A stretch of 43,607 nt of DNA from a virus: the IMG/VR virus record IMGVR_UViG_3300035156_000199; one strand, written 5' to 3'. This document shows, piece by piece, positions 2,381 to 11,585 of this stretch; positions within the stretch are counted from its first letter, which is position 1, and each line of letters begins with the position of its first letter. A program made the translations under genes and the position numbers. The notes beneath the pieces are model-generated. The model was not told the origin of the DNA. It searched no databases and saw nothing but the letters and a program-made list of their open reading frames with translations.

Positions 2381-3205
2381 GGTGTCGGTTCCTTTCTCTC
2401 GGGGGTTGGTGCGTTCCGCCGGCTCGGCCGGAGGCTTGGTGGTGGCCTTGTCGACCAGGTGGGTGAGCATCGGCAGGGCGTGACCCTGGGCGAGGCTCAG
2501 TCGGTCCTTGCGGACGTGGTTGGTGGGAACGAGGGGCCGGGGCGCGTCGCGGCGTCCGGCGTGGGCGAAGATCGACAGGTCGAATCGCGCGGTGGCGTCT
2601 TCCTGCTCCTCGGCGGAGTCTCCGCCCTTGCTGGTCTGAACGCGGTCGGCGAGACCCGCGGCGACGGCTTCGTCCGCCGTGTACCAGGTCTCCGAGTGCA
2701 TCGCGGCTCGCCACTCGTCGGCAGTGCCTCCGGCCCTCTCGGCGTAGACGTTCGCGATGGTCTGGGAGAGCTGGTCCAGGATGTCGGCGGTCTCGCGCAT
2801 GTCGCCGGCGTTGCCCCAGCAAATCCCGGACGCATCGTGGATCATCATCTCGGAGCCGAAGCCCATGACGACCTCGTCGGCGGCCTGGATGATGAATGAC
2901 GCCGCGGACGCCGCGAGTCCGTCGACCGTGGCCACGACGTGCGCCTTGTGCCTGCGGATCGCGTTCATGATGGCCGTGCCGTCGAAGACCGAGCCGCCGG
3001 GGGAGTTGACGTAGAGGTTGATGGTCTCGACGTCGAGCGCTGCGAGCTCCTTCACGAACTCGGAGGCGTTCACGCCCCACCAGCTGTCGATTACGTCGTA
3101 GATGTAGACATCAGCAGTGGACCCGGACTTGGCCTCCATCCGGTACCACTGGGGGCCAGCGGCCGACTTCGGCAGCGGTCCTGCTGTGCTGCGGTTGCGG
3201 GTCAT
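1898..3205 (-). CDS. ClpP-like (S14) prohead maturation protease fused to a C-terminal scaffolding domain
   Basis: Motifs are NSPGGSVFDG, GLAASAASFIIQAAD (Ser) and MIHDASG (His), followed by a helical acidic C-terminal half. ATG 3205 overlaps the portal stop (ATGA); a GTG at 3217 is an alternative start. Confidence 0.85.
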   Translation of the reverse strand: MTRNRSTAGPLPKSAAGPQWYRMEAKSGSTADVYIYDVIDSWWGVNASEFVKELAALDVETINLYVNSPGGSVFDGTAIMNAIRRHKAHVVATVDGLAASAASFIIQAADEVVMGFGSEMMIHDASGICWGNAGDMRETADILDQLSQTIANVYAERAGGTADEWRAAMHSETWYTADEAVAAGLADRVQTSKGGDSAEEQEDATARFDLSIFAHAGRRDAPRPLVPTNHVRKDRLSLAQGHALPMLTHLVDKATTKPPAEPAERTNPREKGTDTMSDELTKGLRERLGIPATATLDDDGLLAAVDEALAEHEPTTVPPAATAPGTVVLDEAQYAQLRNDAAQGREARNEQLRSDRENLVDAAVNDGRIAPARRDHWVAVLEADPGMSETLGNLAKGLVPLEAKGYAGGINESSDEDSLYSKVWASPAATTEKGA

Positions 3206-4557
3206 GATCCTGGCCACCGTTCTGTGGTCTGCCGCGGCTCGGATGGCTGCGGTCGGGGCGGGTTGTGGGAGGGCCTTTGCTGGTCGCCGGACTGGCTGCT
3301 CGTGGAGGGCGGTTCGCGCTCGGTCGTCGGGTCCCGGTCGGGCAGGCTGTACTGGTTGCGCAGGTACGCCTCGAGCGGATCGTCGAGCCGTAGCGCTCCG
3401 ACCCTGACCAGACGCTCAATCGCATCCGCGGTCGCCGGGTGACGCGATCCGATCTCGTCGAACACGAGTTTCGGGGCCGGCTCGTTCGGCCCGTAGTTCA
3501 GATCGACGAGATCCTCGATGACGTGCTGGTTGACGACGTCGGCGATCTGCATCGCAATCGTCTGCAGGGAGAGCGTGAAGAAGTCCGCGAACGTCGAGCC
3601 GAGCGCCCAGGACCCTGTCTCGGTGCCGAGGTTCAGGAAGTGCGCGAGGACCGCGCGGGCAATCTGCTCGTCGTAGTAGCGGATCGGCTTCTCCGCGTCT
3701 GGCAGGTCGCCGTCCACGCCGGCCAAGGTGAGCTTTGCCTTCGCAGGAATCGACGCCCCAGAGTTATCCCCGGAACGGAGGCCCTGAGCGATCTTCAGAC
3801 CCTCGTCGACTTCCTTTTGCTGCCGCGCTTCGATGTCCGCCGCCTGCACGCCATCGGGTACCTCTGACGCCGTGTAGATCGGCACGCCCATGCCGTTCCG
3901 GTCGAGGGTCTGCGCCTGAACGCGGAGCCCCCGGTCCTTGAGCAGCCAGTACTTGTACGCCGGCCGGATGACGGACTGACCGAGCCAGTTCCCGCCCTCG
4001 CGCTCGTTCACGTACGCGACCAGGCGGGCTACCTCGATGCGCGGGTCACTCGAGCCCGGCTTCGACGCGTGCTGCTCGATGGCCACCAGCCCGCCGTCAG
4101 CGGCGACGTCGACCTTCGATATGGTCCGCGGCGGCCGCCACTCCAGCTTCCTTAGGTGAGCCTTGCCTTCCCGAATTTCGTAGACCTGCTCGAAGAACGA
4201 GTGCCCGAAGGGCAGCATCAGCAGCGCGTGCCGCAGGTGCTCGGCCCAGGAAAAGCGATTCTGCGAGCGCAGGACCTGACGGGCGGGCTGCCCGACGATG
4301 TTCAGCCCGAGGTCGTCTGCGACGTCCTGCACGACCTGCTCACGGGCGCCGCTCGGATCGATCCTCCACACCGTGCGCCGGACAGGGAGGGTGATGGCGC
4401 GGAGCACAGAGGTGACCTGTGCTTCCTGGCGCCGCATGCTGTCGAACACCGCGATGTTCTTCGGCCAGACGAGCTCGGGGGTCTCCTCCTCGTCGGGGGC
4501 CGCCCACCACGGGGAGACGTTGGTCGCGTAACCCTTCGCTGCTACCGGAACGGCCAC
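3202..4557 (-). CDS. Portal protein
   Basis: 451 aa, lying between TerL and the protease. The GTG start is preceded by GAGGAGG. Size and position are canonical for a portal. Confidence 0.8.
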   Translation of the reverse strand: MAVPVAAKGYATNVSPWWAAPDEEETPELVWPKNIAVFDSMRRQEAQVTSVLRAITLPVRRTVWRIDPSGAREQVVQDVADDLGLNIVGQPARQVLRSQNRFSWAEHLRHALLMLPFGHSFFEQVYEIREGKAHLRKLEWRPPRTISKVDVAADGGLVAIEQHASKPGSSDPRIEVARLVAYVNEREGGNWLGQSVIRPAYKYWLLKDRGLRVQAQTLDRNGMGVPIYTASEVPDGVQAADIEARQQKEVDEGLKIAQGLRSGDNSGASIPAKAKLTLAGVDGDLPDAEKPIRYYDEQIARAVLAHFLNLGTETGSWALGSTFADFFTLSLQTIAMQIADVVNQHVIEDLVDLNYGPNEPAPKLVFDEIGSRHPATADAIERLVRVGALRLDDPLEAYLRNQYSLPDRDPTTEREPPSTSSQSGDQQRPSHNPPRPQPSEPRQTTERWPGS

Positions 4558-4572
4558 GCGGACCTCCTCTCA

Positions 4573-6288
4573 TCAGAAACCCATCGTGGCGACGTCGTCA
4601 GACGAGGCCACGGAGGCTGTACGGACCGCAGCGGGAGGCGGCGGTGGGGGTGGTGGGGCGATCTCGCGCTCACTGAGGAGCCAGTACGCGGCGGTGAAAG
4701 CCATGAGCGGCGCGACGTCGGCAGGGGAAGCCCGGTCGTCGGGGATGGACGCGCCGCCGCTGAAGATTTTCACCACCGCGGTGGCGGCGGCGACGTCGAG
4801 GATCGGCTGCGGGTTGTGGCGGACCTTGTTGTCGCGGACGTCGTCGTAGACCTTCGCCCAACCGGCGGTGAGGTCCCCGCCGGACCACTTCACGACCGGG
4901 ATCGTGAAGGTGTCGTCCTCGTCGAGGTCCTTCATGAGAGGAGACACCGGCGAGCCGTTCGTCTGACCGGTCACCGCTGTGATTCGGTCACGGCGCTTTT
5001 CGTTCATCAGCCAGTCACGGACCCAGTCCGAGCCGAGGCGCTCGGCCACGACCTCGACCTGGGCTACGCCGTCGGCGCGGTGCCCGGCGAAGGCCACATA
5101 GACGCGCTTCCGGTCGATCGACTGGTGAATCCCTGCTTTCACGGGGCCGACAATTCGGTCCTCCTGTCGGACGACCTGGCGACCGTCAGGCCCCGTCTCC
5201 GGGGTGTTCCTGCTCTTCTCCCACGAGCCGGGCGGGAACGGGCCGTCTAGGGTTCCTTCGGACCACTGGCAGAGGTCCTCAGTGCGGAAGATCGGTTCGG
5301 GGTCGATCTCGCAGTCCGACGCGAGGATCGACTGCGTGTGGTTTGGGTTCCACCCGAGTGACGGGTTCGCCTGCGCCCACGCCTGACGGTCCCACTTGCT
5401 GCACCCGGGAGGCGCCGACCACTCGAACAGGGCCAGGGTGTCCGGGTCCTGCTCGTACTCCTCGAGGTCCTCCTCGTCGAACTCCTCGCCGTCCTCCTCG
5501 GCGACGTCTTGCAGCTCGGCTACGGTAGGGCCTTCGGTCAGGAGGTCCTTGTTGATGCCGTCCGGGTCGCCGATCGCGGCGTGCGCCATCTTCCGCAGGT
5601 ACCGGAGCACCACGGACGTCAGGTCGCCGGCGTTCGATAGCGCGAGGACCATCGCCTCCGAGCCCTGGGCGTTGGTCGTCTTCGTGATCGCCGCCCAGGC
5701 TTCCCAGCTCTGATGCTCACGCAGCTCGTCGAGCATGATCAGGTTGCCACTGAAGCCGCGCCCCGCCCGGCGGTTCGCGGCCTTTACCTTGTACCGCTTG
5801 CCCGACTTGAGGACCAATGACTTCTGGCCGTTGACTCGGCGGACGCCCCGCAGCATCTTCCGGAGCTCGCGGTCCTCCTCTACGAGGCTGACCGCTCCCT
5901 CCCAGATCTCCTCCGCGGTCTCGAGGTCCTGAGCCGTACCGAGGACCAGGGGCCAGCCCCACACGATGATGAACCACAGCGCGAGGACCTTCGACAGAGT
6001 CGACTTGCCGTTCTGCCGGGCGACCAGCACGACCACTTTCCGGAAGCGGAAGTTCCCGTCGTCCCCCAGCTCGAGCATGTGGACGAGCAGCCACTTCTGC
6101 CAGGGGAACAGCCCGACGTGCAGGATGTTCTCCGCGAAGTCGATGACCATGTAGCCGAGCGTGTGCTGCTCGGTCTCCGGCGAGCGCGGCTCCAACGGTC
6201 GCAGCGGCGGCGTGTAGACGCGGGGAGTCTCGATGCCGTATAGCGGTGGGCGCTTGCGCTTGGGGCGGGCGCTAACCTCCGTTGCCAC
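4573..6288 (-). CDS. terL: Terminase large subunit
   Basis: 571 aa with a Walker A-like LVARQNGKSTL motif. It is long enough to hold ATPase plus nuclease domains and sits downstream of TerS. The C-terminal tail contains PPPPPPPP. Confidence 0.9.
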   Translation of the reverse strand: MATEVSARPKRKRPPLYGIETPRVYTPPLRPLEPRSPETEQHTLGYMVIDFAENILHVGLFPWQKWLLVHMLELGDDGNFRFRKVVVLVARQNGKSTLSKVLALWFIIVWGWPLVLGTAQDLETAEEIWEGAVSLVEEDRELRKMLRGVRRVNGQKSLVLKSGKRYKVKAANRRAGRGFSGNLIMLDELREHQSWEAWAAITKTTNAQGSEAMVLALSNAGDLTSVVLRYLRKMAHAAIGDPDGINKDLLTEGPTVAELQDVAEEDGEEFDEEDLEEYEQDPDTLALFEWSAPPGCSKWDRQAWAQANPSLGWNPNHTQSILASDCEIDPEPIFRTEDLCQWSEGTLDGPFPPGSWEKSRNTPETGPDGRQVVRQEDRIVGPVKAGIHQSIDRKRVYVAFAGHRADGVAQVEVVAERLGSDWVRDWLMNEKRRDRITAVTGQTNGSPVSPLMKDLDEDDTFTIPVVKWSGGDLTAGWAKVYDDVRDNKVRHNPQPILDVAAATAVVKIFSGGASIPDDRASPADVAPLMAFTAAYWLLSEREIAPPPPPPPPAAVRTASVASSDDVATMGF

Positions 6289-6955
6289 GTCGCGCCCGGG
6301 CGCTGGCCTGCATATCCGTCACGGATGCGATCGGACCAGGTGCACCGCTCGTTCCGGTGCCAGCGGTCTCGTCATCGTCCAGATCCTCCGCGTCCGCGGC
6401 CCGCGTGGCCGCTGGCAGGGATGCGGGCGTGATGTGCAGCTCGGCGCAGGCCTTGAGGTAGTTCGGGATCAGCGTGACGCCCGCCTTCTGCAGCGCGTCC
6501 ATGCTCTCGCGCTGCGCCTCGTCGATCAGCCAGGCCATGGTCTTCAGCACCGCGACCGGCCCGAGGTACTTCTTCAACGCCAGGTGAGGCGCTGCGGCGA
6601 TCGACGCGGCGGTCGCGTCCGCCATGTAACCGCGCTTCCTCGTGGGCTTCACGAGGGGCGCGAACCGATCTCCCCAGATGCGGACCTGGTCGGCTGTTTG
6701 ACGCTCGATGGCGAGCGCGGGATGGGGTACCACGCGGCCGCGGGCGTCCTTCACGACCATTCCCTCGGTAGCGACCCGCTCTCGGGCTCCTCGCAGGCGC
6801 GCGATCAGGGTGCAGTAGGCCTCGAGGCCGGAGCGGTCGACGCGGCCCGCGAGATCGTTGGCGGAAACGATTTCCCGCCAGACGATGGCGACGTCCTCGG
6901 GCATGCTGTCCGGGGGCTCGATCGCTGCCGCGTCCTTGTGCTCGTCGCGGGTCAA
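6272..6955 (-). CDS. terS: Terminase small subunit (P27-family-like)
   Basis: 227 aa. The pattern PPDSMPEDVAIVWREIV...LEAYCTLIARLRGARERVATEGMVVKDARGRVVPHPALAIERQTADQV matches the P27-type TerS layout. The TTG start overlaps the upstream stop (TTGA). Confidence 0.7.
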   Translation of the reverse strand: MTRDEHKDAAAIEPPDSMPEDVAIVWREIVSANDLAGRVDRSGLEAYCTLIARLRGARERVATEGMVVKDARGRVVPHPALAIERQTADQVRIWGDRFAPLVKPTRKRGYMADATAASIAAAPHLALKKYLGPVAVLKTMAWLIDEAQRESMDALQKAGVTLIPNYLKACAELHITPASLPAATRAADAEDLDDDETAGTGTSGAPGPIASVTDMQASARARRGNGG

Positions 6956-7350
6956 CTCAGGATCACCTCCCCGATCTGCATCGTGCCGCAGCGGATGTCT
7001 GCGATGGACAGGACGCCGGCCTCGATACCCTCGATGGGCTGTGCGTCGATCGGCGAGCCCGAGGAGTACTCCGGGCGAAGGCGAGCGACGAGGTCCGACA
7101 GCGCCCGGCGTGAGTGCCGCCAGTCGATGATCAGGACGATGTCCGCAACGCTCATCGCCGGATAGTCGGCCAGGACGTCTCGGACAGCGGGCTCGGCCGC
7201 CTCCGCGAGAGACGCGCGGTGGTATCGGTCACGAGCGCCAGAGGCAAGGGCTCGACGCACAGCGTTCCGCGAGGCGCGCTGCGAGCGGGCGATGCCCCTG
7301 ATCGATTCGCCCTCACCATGTAGCAGGCGAAGATGCGGCCGATCGTGCAC
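6952..7350 (-). CDS. HTH DNA-binding protein resembling the N-terminal region of IS21-family IstA transposases (no DDE domain)
   Basis: 132 aa, with a GTG start preceded by GGAGGTG. By eye, LRLLHGEGESIRGIARSQRASRNAVRRALASGARDRYHRAS...VRDVLADYPAMSVADIVLIIDW...LVARLRPEY matches the IstA HTH region. It is coupled to terS. Confidence 0.5.
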   Translation of the reverse strand: MHDRPHLRLLHGEGESIRGIARSQRASRNAVRRALASGARDRYHRASLAEAAEPAVRDVLADYPAMSVADIVLIIDWRHSRRALSDLVARLRPEYSSGSPIDAQPIEGIEAGVLSIADIRCGTMQIGEVILS

Positions 7351-7599
7351 CCTGTCACCTCCGCGTACGTTTGCCTCTGCCTGTATCAGCCGCAGGTCTG
7401 AGGCGGTGCCCGGTGTTGCGTCCGACGTGCGCCTCGAGCTGCCCTAGGACGAGTGATGCGGTGCGGGCGCTCTAGCTGGTCGAGACGGTTGAGGGGGTCC
7501 ATTTTCCGCGCCAACATGCGGAACTTGGAGGGTTTCGTGGGGGGAAACTCAGGGGAGAGAGGACGCTGCCGGCCCGGAGGGGCCGCCTAGCCGCCCGCG
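7351..7599. promoter_or_regulatory. Gene-free region between the HNH endonuclease and the packaging genes; probable cos/packaging-initiation region and late-operon control region
   Basis: This is the largest spacer on the minus-strand arm. It is locally less G+C-rich (attttccgcgccaacatgcggaactt, with the TTCCGC/GCGGAA inverted repeat). HNH-cos-TerS is the usual arrangement in HNH-dependent cos phages. Confidence 0.35.
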
Positions 7600-7950
7600 C
7601 TAATTTTTCTCAGCTGCCCCGACATGTCGATTCCGGATACGAGCACTCGTAACACCGTGAACCGGGGTTCGTGATTGGAATCGGCGGAAGTTGTTCTCGG
7701 AGTAGGTCACGAGCTCGAGGTGCTCGGGGCGAACGCATGCCCGATCGAGGCACAGGTGGTCGAGGCACAGCCCCTCGGGGATGGCCTCGTTGTGAAGCTC
7801 CCACATCGCGCGGTGAGCGGTGACGTTGCGACCGTGCCGTGCGATTTGTCCGTAGCCGCCCCATGTGAGGGTGCCAGTCCAGATCCAGCAACCCGTCTCG
7901 GGCTCGACTCGATAGCGGCTGGTGAGTCGGTCTTCGTAGGTGATCGGCAT
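7600..7950 (-). CDS. HNH endonuclease (terminase-associated type)
   Basis: 116 aa. CWIWTGTLTWGGYGQIARHGRNVTAHRAMWELHNEAIPEGLCLDHLCLDRACVRPEHLELVTYSEN matches the classic phage HNH_3 pattern. Confidence 0.85.
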   Translation of the reverse strand: MPITYEDRLTSRYRVEPETGCWIWTGTLTWGGYGQIARHGRNVTAHRAMWELHNEAIPEGLCLDHLCLDRACVRPEHLELVTYSENNFRRFQSRTPVHGVTSARIRNRHVGAAEKN

Positions 7951-7959
7951 GGGGCCTCC

Positions 7960-8391
7960 TCACCACTCTTCGGATGTCACGCCGAGGTTCGGCTCCTCGA
8001 TGCGCGACCATCCATCGAAGCTCGGTACGCCGTCGTTTCGGTCGAAGCGATTGAGCCATGTCTTCACTCCCGCGATGGTTTGCACCCTGTCGTCGCGGCC
8101 GCGCTGCTTGATCCGGTTGACCAGCTCCTGCCGGTCGGCCAGCATCACGAGCACATGGGTAGCGTTGACCAGGCTGCGGGTCCGAGCCCGAGCGGCTGAT
8201 GTTGCACCCGATCTTATGACGACGGCGCGCGCGTGCGGGTCGTCGGCCAGCCGCGCGATCGTTGTCGTGAAGTGCTGCTCACTGGCCCATTGCGGATCGT
8301 CGCGGTCGAAGACGGTGAGGCCCGACTGCCGGGCTGCTGTCGTCTTGCCCGCACCGGGTGGACCGCAGAGCACCACGACCAGGCGCGTCAC
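7960..8391 (-). CDS. P-loop NTPase / kinase-like protein (143 aa)
   Basis: The GTG start overlaps the upstream stop (GTGA). Walker A is VVLCGPPGAGKTT. The protein ends in LGVTSEEW. Confidence 0.7.
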   Translation of the reverse strand: MTRLVVVLCGPPGAGKTTAARQSGLTVFDRDDPQWASEQHFTTTIARLADDPHARAVVIRSGATSAARARTRSLVNATHVLVMLADRQELVNRIKQRGRDDRVQTIAGVKTWLNRFDRNDGVPSFDGWSRIEEPNLGVTSEEW

Positions 8392-8687
8392 CACTCCTCC
8401 GATGTGACGCCGAGGTCGAGCTGCTGCTCGGCGCCGGCGCTCTTGTTGCAGTCGAGGTGCGCCGGCTTCCAGTTCGTCCGATCCCAGGTGAGGTGCGGGT
8501 ACAGCTTCCGGGACTTCACATGCTGCACGCTGCAGGACTGCGGGTGCGGGTACTCCAGCGAGTACTCGATGCCCTGCCTGCAGATGAAGCACGGGGCGTT
8601 CGTCCGGCTGCCCTCGGCCTTGACCAGCGCCAGAGCGTCAGCTCGGCGCCGGCCCGACCACTCCGGGATGTGCGCGCCTTCGGTCAC
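8388..8687 (-). CDS. Small HNH endonuclease (99 aa)
   Basis: The GTG start is preceded by GGGAGGTGAG. HNH elements are CFICRQG...SVQHVKSRKLYP...NWKPAHLDCNKSAG. It also ends in LGVTSEEW. Confidence 0.75.
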   Translation of the reverse strand: MTEGAHIPEWSGRRRADALALVKAEGSRTNAPCFICRQGIEYSLEYPHPQSCSVQHVKSRKLYPHLTWDRTNWKPAHLDCNKSAGAEQQLDLGVTSEEW

Positions 8688-8729
8688 ATTGCTCTCACCT
8701 CCCGGCTAGATGAGTGGGCCGGCAATGAC

Positions 8730-8761
8730 GAAGGCCCCGCCGGCGGACCGGCGAGGCCTTC
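8730..8761 (-). terminator. Strong GC hairpin (13 bp with one mismatch, CGGA tetraloop) lacking a U-tract
   Basis: gaaggcc c cgccgg cgga ccggcg a ggccttc. It lies in the 173-bp spacer between the 49-aa Cys-rich gene and the HNH gene. Confidence 0.4.
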
Positions 8762-8860
8762 ATGCTTGGGTGCAGAACACCACCATCCCTCAAAGAGTAG
8801 GGGAGTTTGTCAAGTAGCGCCAGCTGCTCGGGGGAGTCGGCGTGGCGGCCGAGCTACAGA

Positions 8861-9010
8861 TCAAGCGGTCTGAGGCTCGAAGACTAGGCGGCACCAGTCG
8901 CACTCGTCGTGGGTCCACACGTGGTTGCAGTGATGACCGCAGGGCCTTTGCGACTTCGGGCACTCGTTCGGCTGCGTGCCAACCTCGCCGCACGATCCGC
9001 ACTCGTCCAT
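8861..9010 (-). CDS. Small Cys/His-rich (zinc-finger-like) protein, 49 aa
   Basis: ATG 9010 has GAGAGG upstream. It reads MDECGSCGEVGTQPNECPKSQRPCGHHCNHVWTHDECDWCRLVFEPQTA. Confidence 0.45.
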   Translation of the reverse strand: MDECGSCGEVGTQPNECPKSQRPCGHHCNHVWTHDECDWCRLVFEPQTA

Positions 9011-9071
9011 GCTGCATCTGCCTCTCTCGTGGGGAACTGGACTACAGAACAGAAGGTTCGGACGCCGCTGG

Positions 9072-9884
9072 TCACGACGACGCCCCGTACTTCGCGGCGA
9101 GCTTGGCGGCGCGGTTGCTCTGCTTCGTGGCGCGGTGGCCTGATACTTGCAACCACTTCTCGATGGGCATGGAGTGCATTGGGTCCTCGGAGCACTCCAC
9201 GATCTTCGAGCCCGCGACACCGATGACCGCCTCGAGCTGGCCGGGGCACGGAGCCCGACCACCCTCTTCGGTGGTGATCCACTGATGGCAGGTCGACTCG
9301 ATCGGCCGGCGGGCGCTCGGCGGATGGACTGCCTTCTCGACTTTCCGTCCGGCCGACCAGGCCATTCGGTACACGCGCTCGGTGAAGTCCTGGTCAGGGT
9401 GAGTGGCGATGTAGTCGACGTAGTACCGAGCGAGGAGACCGGCGAGTGCCCACGTGCCTTCGTCGGTGCGGAAGGTGACGAGCTTGCCGTCGCGGCCGAG
9501 CACGTGGTCGCGGGAGATGCTGGCGATGATCGCCCACACGACGTTGCGCGCTTCGCCCATGGCTTCGGAGATCGTGAGGTCGATCGGGGCTGCGGAGCCT
9601 TCGGTGCTGGAGCCCGGGCGTTCGCCGTCGGACTTCCGTCGGCTGGTCATGAGTGCGTCCTCGAGGTTGTCCCACCGGTCCTCGATGAGTCGGAGGTCGG
9701 CGCGCAGCTGTGTGGTGCAGTCGGTGCAGAGGTTCGAGCTCATGTCCGCGAGGTTGTGGACGTCTCCGATGATGCAGTACTTCGGGTGGTCGGCGGCTTC
9801 GACGGCGGCCGAGTAGGGAACCGGTTGGCCGTCGATGAGGTAGCGGCGCCGCTTCGTGAGCTGCGGGTGGGTCGGGGGCGTCAT
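9072..9884 (-). CDS. Hypothetical early protein, 270 aa, with a C-terminal Cys cluster
   Basis: ATG 9884 overlaps the VRR-NUC stop (ATGA). It reads MTPPTHPQLTKRRRYLIDGQ... and G+C at third codon positions is high. I recognised no family. Confidence 0.6.
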   Translation of the reverse strand: MTPPTHPQLTKRRRYLIDGQPVPYSAAVEAADHPKYCIIGDVHNLADMSSNLCTDCTTQLRADLRLIEDRWDNLEDALMTSRRKSDGERPGSSTEGSAAPIDLTISEAMGEARNVVWAIIASISRDHVLGRDGKLVTFRTDEGTWALAGLLARYYVDYIATHPDQDFTERVYRMAWSAGRKVEKAVHPPSARRPIESTCHQWITTEEGGRAPCPGQLEAVIGVAGSKIVECSEDPMHSMPIEKWLQVSGHRATKQSNRAAKLAAKYGASS

Positions 9885-10219
9885 GCTGCTGCTCCTCGGA
9901 GTTCGCGCTGGATGGATTCGTTGGCCCAGTCGGCCGGCCACTTCACGGCGGCGTTGATGCCGACCGAGCGGAGGCCGGCGACCCAGGCGAGCTGAGAGGT
10001 GGAGGGCTTGCCCCTGCGGGACTTCAGTTCCCAGATGATGAGCTTCCTTCGGACGGGGTGCAGCAGGACGAGGTCCGGCCACCCTGAGGGTGAGCGCTGG
10101 CTGTTGTGGGTGTGGTAGTGCATCCAGCCGAGCCGGGTGGCGAGGCTGATGATCTCGGTCTGGAACTCCTGCTCGGTCCAGGCGTTGCAGAGGTTCAGCC
10201 GGTAGTCGACGGCCTTCAT
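9881..10219 (-). CDS. VRR-NUC domain nuclease
   Basis: 112 aa. GWPDLVLLHPVRRKLIIWELKSRRGKPSTSQLAWVAGLRSVG is the PD-(D/E)xK VRR-NUC signature. The start is ATGA-coupled. Confidence 0.8.
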   Translation of the reverse strand: MKAVDYRLNLCNAWTEQEFQTEIISLATRLGWMHYHTHNSQRSPSGWPDLVLLHPVRRKLIIWELKSRRGKPSTSQLAWVAGLRSVGINAAVKWPADWANESIQRELRGAAA

Positions 10220-11319
10220 GAGCTGGGGTCCTTGGTAGGCCGGGCTCTGGGTCGTCGTCTTCGGTTGCGTCCTGGTCGTTGTGATCTCGGGTCAGGATTA
10301 CGGGTCTGGTTGACCCGAGGAAGATCCGGAGGTGTCAGCTGAGAGCGGGGCGGGGTAGGTGCTGGGCTCCCGCCCCTGCCCTTACCGTCCCGACCCGTCC
10401 CGACCCGTCCCGTCCCGGTACCGCTGTCTTCTGTAGTTGGGTGTCCTGCTGTTTCTGCTGAGCTCTGCAGATGGGCCGTGGGAGGCTCGTCGACCGCGCC
10501 GGGGGTGCCGTTGCGCGGGAGTGCCTGCTGGTCCGCGCCGGGGATGCCGTCGCGCGGTCGGGGCTGTTCCGTCTGGCCGGGGGTGCCGTTGCCTGATGGG
10601 TCGCCTGGCTTGATCTGCTTGCGGGGTGCCGCCGGTATCTTGATGCCGTTGCGGGCCGCCCAGTCGTTGTTTTGCAGCCACGTGATGGTGTAGCTCGAGT
10701 AGTAGGGCTCGATAGGTGGGGGGAGCAGTGGAAGCCGCTCGTCGGCGTCCGGCTTGTTGCCGCGCGCGGTGTTGCATCCCTTGCAGGACACGACGTACGT
10801 CTCGAACGTCGCGGCCTGGCCGGGCTCCCGGTGATCGTACGTACCGACGTGTCGACCGGTCCGGGCGCCCGGAGCGAACTTGACCACCATCCCGCAGTAC
10901 CTGCAGGCGTCGCCGTCGCGAAGCCTGACAGGCACGACCAGGGCGGGGTCTGAGTTGTCGCTTTTCCGTTGGCGCTCGAACTCGATCTCCTCGCGAGTCC
11001 GCATGTGGATGAACTCCGGGTCATCGATGAGCTTGTACACCCGCCGAGGCTGCCCGTTCTCCTCGAGCTCCTGCTCCGTCCAGTAGCCGGCGAACGTGGC
11101 CACGGCCACCAGCTCCTTCACGCGGCTGATTCCCGCCATCTGAATCGCGGTGCCATGAGACACCACGTAATCCGTCAGGTGAGCGGTCGAGAGCAGCGCG
11201 CAACGGACCACGAACCCGAAGACCTCGTTCAGCAGCCGGTCGTCGGCGAGGTCGTGCTCGAGTACTCCGAGCACGACGGGGTGATTGGGGGAGGTGTCTC
11301 CCTGTCGAAGCCAAGCCAT
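10216..11319 (-). CDS. HNH-domain protein with a conserved prophage-type N-terminal domain and a low-complexity repeat tail (367 aa); possible replication/DNA-binding role
   Basis: It starts MAWLRQGDTSPNHPVVLGVL... The HNH module is LRDGDACRYCG...TYDHREP...CKGCNTARGNK. The C-terminus carries 13-aa repeats and a basic tail. The last ~45 codons have poor third-position G+C. Confidence 0.6.
   Translation of the reverse strand: MAWLRQGDTSPNHPVVLGVLEHDLADDRLLNEVFGFVVRCALLSTAHLTDYVVSHGTAIQMAGISRVKELVAVATFAGYWTEQELEENGQPRRVYKLIDDPEFIHMRTREEIEFERQRKSDNSDPALVVPVRLRDGDACRYCGMVVKFAPGARTGRHVGTYDHREPGQAATFETYVVSCKGCNTARGNKPDADERLPLLPPPIEPYYSSYTITWLQNNDWAARNGIKIPAAPRKQIKPGDPSGNGTPGQTEQPRPRDGIPGADQQALPRNGTPGAVDEPPTAHLQSSAETAGHPTTEDSGTGTGRVGTGRDGKGRGGSPAPTPPRSQLTPPDLPRVNQTRNPDPRSQRPGRNRRRRPRARPTKDPSS
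10389..10416 (-). repeat. Six phased G3 tracts with 2-nt spacers (GGGAC/GGGTC)x6 on the coding strand; G-quadruplex motif
   Basis: The plus strand reads ccc ga ccc gt ccc ga ccc gt ccc gt ccc. It encodes GTGRVGTGRDG. Confidence 0.8.
10495..10592 (-). repeat. Three imperfect direct repeats phased at exactly 39 bp (13 codons)
   Basis: cgcgccgggggtgccgttgcgcgg (10495) and cgcgccggggatgccgtcgcgcgg (10534) match at 22/24 positions. A third, shorter copy ggccgggggtgccgttgc starts at 10575. They encode NGTPG/DGIPG/NGTPG units. Confidence 0.8.
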
Positions 11320-11324
11320 GAGGG

Positions 11325-11585
11325 CTAGCAGACCCGCTTCCGGTCGAGGATGGCCTGCACGAGCTGCTGGCCATCCGTGTCTGCGAGCGCGAGGTTGAGC
11401 GTGTCCAGGTGAAGTCGGCAGGTCGCGCACTCGGCCCGGACGTCCGGCAACGGGAGACCCGCGACAGCGGCATTCAGATCGGCGTCGTTCGCGTCACCGA
11501 TCGAGTCCCCGCAACCGTTGCAGCACCGCTGGACGGTGATCAGACGGCGAGCGCCGTCTGTCTGGACGGGAGTTGATAACCTCAT
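11325..11585 (-). CDS. Hypothetical early protein, 86 aa, Cys-containing
   Basis: The start is ATGA-coupled. It reads MRLSTPVQTDGARRLITVQRCCNGCGDSIGD...ECATCRLHL. Confidence 0.55.
   Translation of the reverse strand: MRLSTPVQTDGARRLITVQRCCNGCGDSIGDANDADLNAAVAGLPLPDVRAECATCRLHLDTLNLALADTDGQQLVQAILDRKRVC

Follow-up and report, generated by a model that had tools for sequence, protein, structure and literature searches.

Why should two proteins of unrelated fold, encoded side by side in a phage genome, end in the same eight residues? The question is raised by IMG/VR virus record IMGVR_UViG_3300035156_000199, a stretch of 43,607 nucleotides (the window; ~43.6 kb, 67.5% G+C) that constitutes an essentially complete HK97-like siphophage or prophage. 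On its minus strand a small HNH endonuclease of 99 amino acids (8388..8687) is followed by a P-loop protein of 143 amino acids (7960..8391), and both terminate in LGVTSEEW. The HNH C-terminus is ...QQLDLGVTSEEW and that of the P-loop protein ...EEPNLGVTSEEW, each followed directly by a stop codon. The motif comprises residues 92-99 of the HNH protein (8391-8414, minus strand, stop 8388-8390) and residues 136-143 of the P-loop protein (7963-7986, minus strand, stop 7960-7962). The P-loop reading frame opens with a GTG at 8391 that overlaps the HNH stop as GTGA, a start backed by homologues of 141-147 amino acids beginning M-x-R-x-V-V-L-C-G-P-P-G. The common ending, first pointed out in a prediction made from the letters of the sequence, stands exactly as it was written once the open reading frames (ORFs) are checked; the shared tail is real and no artefact.

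The two tails are encoded by CTC GGC GTC ACA TCG GAG GAG TGG TGA in the HNH gene and CTC GGC GTG ACA TCC GAA GAG TGG TGA in the gene of the P-loop protein. These stretches are identical at 24 of 27 nucleotides, and the three differences (GTC/GTG, TCG/TCC and GAG/GAA) are all synonymous, as the original prediction had it. A degenerate form of the 27-nt pattern, allowed up to three mismatches, matches the window at these two sites only, where 0 matches are expected from 100 shuffles. A C-terminal S-x-x-W likewise occurs in only these two among the 373 window ORFs of at least 40 amino acids, and on the strength of the shuffles and of this uniqueness chance was rejected as the source of the shared tail. 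That the two folds are unrelated was also borne out, one protein matching the HNH family PHROG 338 (E 2.7e-19) and the other adopting a P-loop kinase fold.

The HNH protein has the beta-beta-alpha-metal motif with its catalytic His and Asn and its Cys pairs, and residues C33, C36, Q55-H56, N72, H77, C80 and N81 are invariant in its family; the Pfam HNH match (E 0.0048) falls below the curated cut-off. It is 66-69% identical to the HNH of the Arthrobacter phages Elesar, Ryan, Popper and Cole, where the gene is the last of the genome; in Elesar and its relatives it lies at the right genome end. The window gene similarly lies next to the cos and terminase genes of an HK97-type module, and by these sequence relationships its product is classed as the terminase-associated type found at cos-proximal genome ends of actinophages. 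Terminase-associated HNH endonucleases of the HK97 gp74 type were reportedly described by Kala et al. in 2014 (cited in PMC9410871 and PMC13595911). The window enzyme resembles them as a small HNH whose gene adjoins cos and the terminase genes in a head and packaging module like that of HK97 and, by analogy, would be expected to assist cos cleavage by the large terminase subunit (TerL). Unlike gp74 it has the tail, and it is accompanied by a kinase-like protein that ends in that tail as well. In the AlphaFold2 model of the window HNH the mean predicted local distance difference test (pLDDT) score is 85, with values above 90 for residues ~10-86 and below 50 for residues 89-99 (8391..8423, minus strand), a tail that is thus predicted to be disordered.

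The tail is a property of the HNH family rather than of this one protein. A C-terminal Trp is present in 70 of 88 database HNH homologues, typically as ...LG[VAL][TM]S[EQ][DE]W, and the profile of 70 homologues reads L/M(-7) G(-6) V(-5) T(-4) S(-3) E/Q(-2) D/E(-1) W(0), with Trp at position 0 and a linker of low information before it. The Arthrobacter phage HNHs, which are last genes with no kinase, end ...DLGMGVTSEDW. The anchor residues persist among distant actinophages, where the endings are IGTPSEDW in Bipper, LGPLSEEW in Trine, LGRQSRQW in Vendetta, LGNQSEQW in IME1320, GTVSQQW in PFR1 and LGELSEEF in AnnaLie. Tailed HNHs are found in phages of Arthrobacter, Microbacterium, Gordonia, Mycobacterium, Corynebacterium and Propionibacterium; the HNH of Corynebacterium phage Bran has no tail.

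The second protein had been described as a P-loop NTPase. The P-loop part of that description stands, and the Pfam match is to AAA_33; the profile and structural comparisons allow greater precision, and the protein is best described as a predicted kinase domain resembling T4 polynucleotide kinase (Pnk). Alignment by hhalign to residues 1-152 of T4 Pnk, using a query sequence 100% identical to T4 records, gave a probability of 87% (E 4e-6) and paired the motifs GPPGAGKT with GCPGSGKS, DRDD with NRDD, and ELV.R...RGR with ELVKRNSKRGT (window first, T4 second); NRDD holds the general-base Asp35 of T4 Pnk. The P-loop, the general-base Asp and the lid Arg motifs are therefore all found within a P-loop kinase fold. 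The AlphaFold2 model has a mean pLDDT of 92 and falls below 50 at residues 135-143 (7963..7989, minus strand), the predicted disordered tail. Its best Foldseek matches are two fungal GDP-bound kinase structures, 9drz and 9d8a, which we take to be polynucleotide kinases, followed at lower rank by mammalian PNKP (1yj5 and 3zvn, TM score 0.6-0.65) and by gluconate, shikimate and adenylate kinases. Compared with T4 Pnk, whose kinase domain shares the aligned P-loop, (N/D)RDD and lid EL..R...RG motifs, the window protein has only 143 residues and no phosphatase domain, the equivalent of Arg38 is not conserved in its family, it adjoins an HNH protein to which it is fused in relatives, and it carries the C-terminal tail; its kinase activity is a prediction.

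Several searches bore less fruit. None of the NCBIfam or curated family models reached its cut-off against the P-loop protein, and a PDB sequence search with it was uninformative, the best match being named merely 'phosphate-loop protein'. A tblastn search of 50,697 phage records with the kinase returned no match, prophages and metagenomes being the main sources of the family. The kinase alignment searched against GTDB genomes was swamped by generic P-loop patterns, with at most two kinase relatives in seven loci (L044 and, weakly, L049).

The kinase family carries the tail as firmly as the HNH family does. In its 120 best-scoring homologues the C-terminal residue is Trp in 112, while 86% have Ser at -3 and 72% have Gly at -6. 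Homologues down to ~50% identity still have the tail, and its anchors are those of the HNH tail. The check in relatives that the original prediction called for thus came out in its favour, homologues of both families bearing the tail. The tail is conserved over hundreds of actinobacterial phages, and the two families share one consensus, [LMI]-G-[VLA]-[TMV]-S-x-[DE]-W-COOH, in which Leu/Met at -7, Gly at -6, Ser at -3 and Trp at 0 act as anchors and the positions between them tolerate change. Both show the same profile, a conserved island behind a variable linker of low information, and in both window proteins the motif is the extreme C-terminus of a predicted disordered segment on a confidently modelled domain. 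The comparison originally drawn with the acidic tails of single-stranded DNA-binding proteins (SSBs) and of T7 proteins held for the aromatic C-terminal end and failed for the acidity: position -2 of the kinase homologues is Glu in 33% and Arg in 33%, tails in SRRW, SREW or SRAW are common, and in about one third of these homologues Arg stands at the positions taken for acidic. No conserved acidic run of the SSB or T7 gp2.5 kind precedes the terminal aromatic residue, and it is the Leu, Gly, Ser and Trp anchors that are kept.

The motif is also largely exclusive to the pair. Among 13,989 ORFs from ~110 related loci, the pattern [LIMV]G..S..W-stop picks out 41 HNHs, 18 kinases and one other protein, the locus of which had itself been fetched with the motif pattern. 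No third tail-bearing family was found within +/-10 kb in these ~110 loci. Degenerate DNA patterns searched against IMG/VR gave 0 and then 8 matches, seven of them HNHs; the eighth is an unrelated protein of 133 amino acids (L093) and probably a chance match. In Corynebacterium phages, a small acidic protein in the TerS position (PHROG 10594; gene 1 of Bran, L108:62-379, and L105:2898-3221 in IME1320_01) has Trp after a stretch of acidic residues at its C-terminus (EDDEDW, EDNDEW), an ending kept to the last residue in 15 Corynebacterium phage records. This gene 1 (EDDEDW) was considered as a third tail family and rejected, its ending not being the motif.

Is it the peptide or its DNA that is conserved? 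Across distinct tail DNAs, Gly at -6 is encoded by GGC, GGT, GGG and GGA, Ser at -3 by TCG, TCC, TCA, TCT and AGC, and the stop is TGA, TAA or TAG. Where two tails of one genome have the same residue, the codon is shared at 35 of 69 positions, compared with 24.3 +/- 3.8 predicted from codon usage. Because all synonymous codons are used and half of the identical residues are encoded differently, selection acts on the tail peptide and not on its DNA. No nucleotide-level conservation beyond the need of the peptide is seen, and the finding that could have undone the original prediction, a repeat conserved as DNA, did not materialize. Its preference for selection on the peptide over recent DNA duplication is upheld, since family-wide conservation of the tails and the codon analysis reject both a recent duplication and a DNA-level repeat.

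If both tails are held by selection, do they change together? When the C-terminal octapeptides of HNH and kinase are set side by side in 20 non-redundant genomes that encode the two separately, 89 of 160 positions agree, compared with 40.5 +/- 6.5 in shuffled pairings, and none of 20,000 shuffles reached 89. The agreement extends to departures from the consensus. HNH and kinase both end in TSRRW in locus L022 and in TVREW in L026; the respective endings are LGLMTE and LGLMTD in L017, LGVVGQW and LGVIGTVW in L007, APSREWFTS and APSRAWFFS in L032 and, with the kinase gene first, YPPALEW and YPPPLDW in L020. Position -4 is Thr in both proteins of the window and Met in both proteins of its closest relatives, L111 and L112.

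Gene fusions provide a further line of evidence. The HNH precedes the kinase in fusions from L005, L011, L016, L018, L023, L034, L035, L041 and P0110, and the kinase precedes the HNH in L021, L044 and gp71 of the M. abscessus prophage prophiT37-1, a protein annotated as polynucleotide kinase that ends IDIGLPSEQW. Each fusion, in either order, has a single tail at its extreme C-terminus, so that there is one tail per polypeptide whichever domain comes last. The existence of fusions in both orders indicates that HNH and kinase are functionally linked. A distant clade of HNH-kinase fusions (L028, L034, L036, L037 and L041) ends in ...LR[LR][KR]RSGSLA-stop.

The simplest account of a tail that occurs once per polypeptide on two linked enzymes and changes in step is that the octapeptide acts as an address label, a short linear motif on a disordered C-terminal extension. 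Such a label would tether the cos-associated HNH and the Pnk-like kinase to one site on a receptor, and both enzymes, which are expected to act on DNA ends, would thereby reach the site of genome cutting and packaging. A fusion would manage with one tail, separate enzymes would need one each, and both tails would be expected to track the receptor as it evolves. Co-variation, predicted disorder and the single tails of the fusions all fit the idea, put forward in the original prediction and plausible, that both enzymes go to one partner. Proteins of phage replication and transcription that dock on hubs by their C-terminal tails offer precedents: the tails of T4 gp43, gp33 and gp55 bind the gp45 clamp, T7 gp2.5 and gp4 have acidic tails that end in Phe, and bacterial SSB has a C-terminal tip. 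The window tails are like these in being short motifs with an aromatic end at the tip of disordered extensions on unrelated folds, and they too would let several enzymes use one docking site. They are unlike them in their motif, LG-x-x-S-x-x-W, in which acidity is not conserved (SRRW), in lying in a packaging rather than a replication module, and in the identity of the pair, an HNH and a Pnk-like kinase; their binding is predicted only.

What would the receptor be? We hold with moderate confidence, on sequence and structure-model evidence, that the tails are a shared C-terminal tether to a common receptor, for which TerL would be the likeliest identity, with the portal, TerS or a hub protein of the host less probable. 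That the tail has a binding partner at all, that one partner serves both tails, and that it is TerL are our inferences. The window TerL gene (4573..6288, minus strand) matches PHROG 9 (E 8.9e-68), and phmmer detects a TerL homologue in 76 related loci, compared with 42 for TerS and 47 for portal. According to a review, the HK97 HNH gp74 shows a physical interaction with TerL and enhances cos cleavage (PMC13595911; see also PMC9410871). TerL is the leading candidate because it is the most often detected packaging protein and because of this reported interaction.

Several observations pull the other way. A charge-compensation scan of TerL placed its top columns at 298-301 and 424-433, and these follow phylogeny, not tail type. 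The one HNH for which a TerL interaction is reported, HK97 gp74, ends ...GARNERPHH and does not have the tail, and the HNH of a lactococcal phage did not co-purify with TerL, no stable complex being seen (PMC12967558). The co-variation could equally reflect a receptor in the host or occasional gene conversion. Some DNA homogenisation from time to time is possible in view of the excess of shared codons, which is modest, and Thr at -4 is encoded by ACA in 8 of 27 distinct tail DNAs, compared with 7.8% of Thr codons overall. This rare codon stands in both window tails, at 7972-7974 and 8400-8402. Lastly, the tail might fold back on its own kinase domain, as a sequence correlation hints: in the kinase family Arg115 and Arg118 go with acidic tails, positions 115 and 118 being Arg or Lys in 87-89% of proteins with such tails, compared with 16-59% of those with SR.W tails, a correlation confounded by phylogeny, which tail class follows in 63 of 70 kinase-family cases.

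An alternative that dispenses with a shared receptor is concerted evolution, in which the kinase tail arose as a copy of the HNH tail and has been re-homogenised by gene conversion or by fusion and fission, its function being none or structural. The shared-codon excess (35 against 24.3 +/- 3.8), the near identity of the window pair (24 of 27 nucleotides) and the fusions in both orders, which amount to repeated rearrangement of the locus, are what such a process would leave behind. We nonetheless consider it unlikely: the kinase tail is kept, with the anchors of the HNH tail, in 112 of 120 homologues down to ~50% identity, many pairs (L020, L022 and L032 among them) have near-randomised synonymous sites, and a disordered tail without function would decay or vanish.

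About as improbable, in our estimate, is that the tail is a degron or inhibitory tag, read by a protease or chaperone of the host, that keeps two potentially harmful DNA-end enzymes short-lived. A C-terminus that is exposed and disordered in the AlphaFold2 models and ends in an aromatic residue could serve in this way, anchors kept across phages of many actinobacterial genera would suit a conserved host machine, and co-variation is also expected if both tails adapt to the same host. The actinobacterial ssrA-type degron, however, ends in LAA, which the tail does not resemble. Moreover, phages of a single host, Gordonia terrae 3612, carry the different variants SEEW and SRQW, and tail dialects such as YPPPLDW, RSGSLA and KPIAPIITY are hard to square with a single conserved host protease.

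A more doubtful proposal is that the tails are cargo-loading peptides by which both enzymes enter the HK97-fold procapsid or attach to the portal, to act on the genome ends at ejection. C-terminal peptides do address unrelated proteins to the HK97-fold shell, examples being those that load cargo into encapsulins and, in HK97, the tail of the maturation protease. The window tails resemble them in being short and C-terminal, and the RSGSLA endings of the fusion clade (e.g. ...LRLKRSGSLA) recall the GSL core of the encapsulin peptides. On the other side, the protease and scaffold of this phage lack the motif, and the expected function of the HNH lies outside the capsid. Under such a scheme the dialects LGxxSxxW, YPPPLDW and RSGSLA would be expected to co-evolve with the shell or portal, and two DNA-end enzymes would travel with the genome.

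It is very improbable that the peptide is a by-product of a DNA-level element, that is, of a direct repeat serving as a recombination or regulatory site or as an element for terminase or cos recognition. The copies do flank the kinase gene exactly, with a spacing of 428 nt, the distal copy is usually near the cos region, and HNH-only relatives exist, as expected if the cassette were gained and lost by recombination between repeats; codon sharing slightly above chance and the enrichment of the rare ACA point the same way. Against it stand the use of every synonymous codon for the invariant residues across lineages and the different codons at about half of the identical residues within a genome. 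Phages with the HNH alone keep the tail too, as do fusions and loci of either gene order, whether the stop is TGA, TAA or TAG, and there is no non-coding copy in the window or in the ~110 related loci. Least credible of all is translational coupling, in which the tail codons are kept as the Shine-Dalgarno sequence and overlapping start of the next gene: the window's TCG GAG GAG TGG TGA does hold GGAGGAG and the kinase GTG start (the GTGA overlap), and a TGGTGA overlap recurs at many HNH-kinase junctions, but coupling explains at most four of the eight residues, R-type tails (TCC CGG CGG TGG) have no Shine-Dalgarno sequence, and it was rejected on the ground that genes with no successor, or with a different stop codon, still have the tail: examples are the Elesar HNH, which has nothing downstream and lies 57 nt from the genome end, kinases with the cos region alone behind them, and tails before TAA or TAG.

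Recruitment by a shared C-terminal tether, the reading we prefer, bears on the wider problem of how the small HNH nuclease that many cos phages need to cut their genomes reaches the terminase. What is new is a portable, conserved eight-residue tail common to that nuclease and to a previously unnoticed Pnk-like accessory enzyme; literature searches on the motif and on the HNH-TerL interface found no description of it. The arrangement suggests that packaging motors, much like replication hubs, may use exchangeable C-terminal tags to bring in plug-in enzymes. How accessory enzymes come to cos-type packaging machines can be approached directly by experiment through the tail, which could also mark packaging-associated HNHs and kinases in the annotation of actinophage genomes.

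The genes around the pair place both tails close to a probable cos region. Read along the minus strand, HNH and P-loop protein are followed by an HNH_3-type (homing-like) endonuclease (7950-7600), a gap of ~250 nt, a helix-turn-helix-like ORF (7350-6952), TerS (6272-6955), TerL, portal (3202-4557), protease, scaffold and major capsid protein. The probable cos region (7540..7612, minus strand) was recognized by its likeness to the Elesar genome ends. Arthrobacter phage Elesar has a left physical end similar to CGTCCTCTCTCCCC, which lies within the gap at 7565-7552, and the A-tract GAGAAAAATTAGC resembles CCGAAAAAATCCAGC, which lies beside the Elesar right end and also comes after the kinase stop in relatives. 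The window A-tract further recalls the A-tract in the TerS binding site of HK97 (PMC11331095). Since the gap holds sequences like the Elesar ends, the tail-bearing genes would be the last conserved genes before cos, and since the probable cos region is internal, the window is presumably a circularly permuted or prophage copy.

The HNH_3-type gene separates the kinase from the probable cos site, its final codons reaching into the A-tract. It is absent from this position in the nearest relatives, L111 and L112, which gives it the look of a lineage-specific insertion. Just upstream of the HNH start, 8723-8768 is occupied by an inverted repeat of 21 nt (loop of 4 nt, 81% complementarity), which could be a terminator between the replication genes and the HNH/packaging operon; the simple promoter and terminator scan of 6800-9200, which gave nothing informative, did not call it. 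Further upstream are a second, large HNH protein (10216-11430, minus strand, PHROG 15463) and a protein resembling VRR-NUC and Holliday-junction resolvases (9881-10219, minus strand), and the window thus has three different HNH proteins within 4 kb.

TerL has a conserved C-terminal tail of its own, D-[DN]-[LVI]-x-x-[IMV]-G-F-stop, which in the window reads ...SSDDVATMGF (4573-4602, minus strand) and which is also present in L003, L010, L017, L052, L060, L061, L066 and L106. Conserved throughout the Micrococcales clade, it shows no co-variation with the tails of the HNH and the kinase. The C-terminal tails of lambda gpA and T3 gp19 dock these terminases to the portal, and by analogy the TerL tail may be a portal-docking tail.

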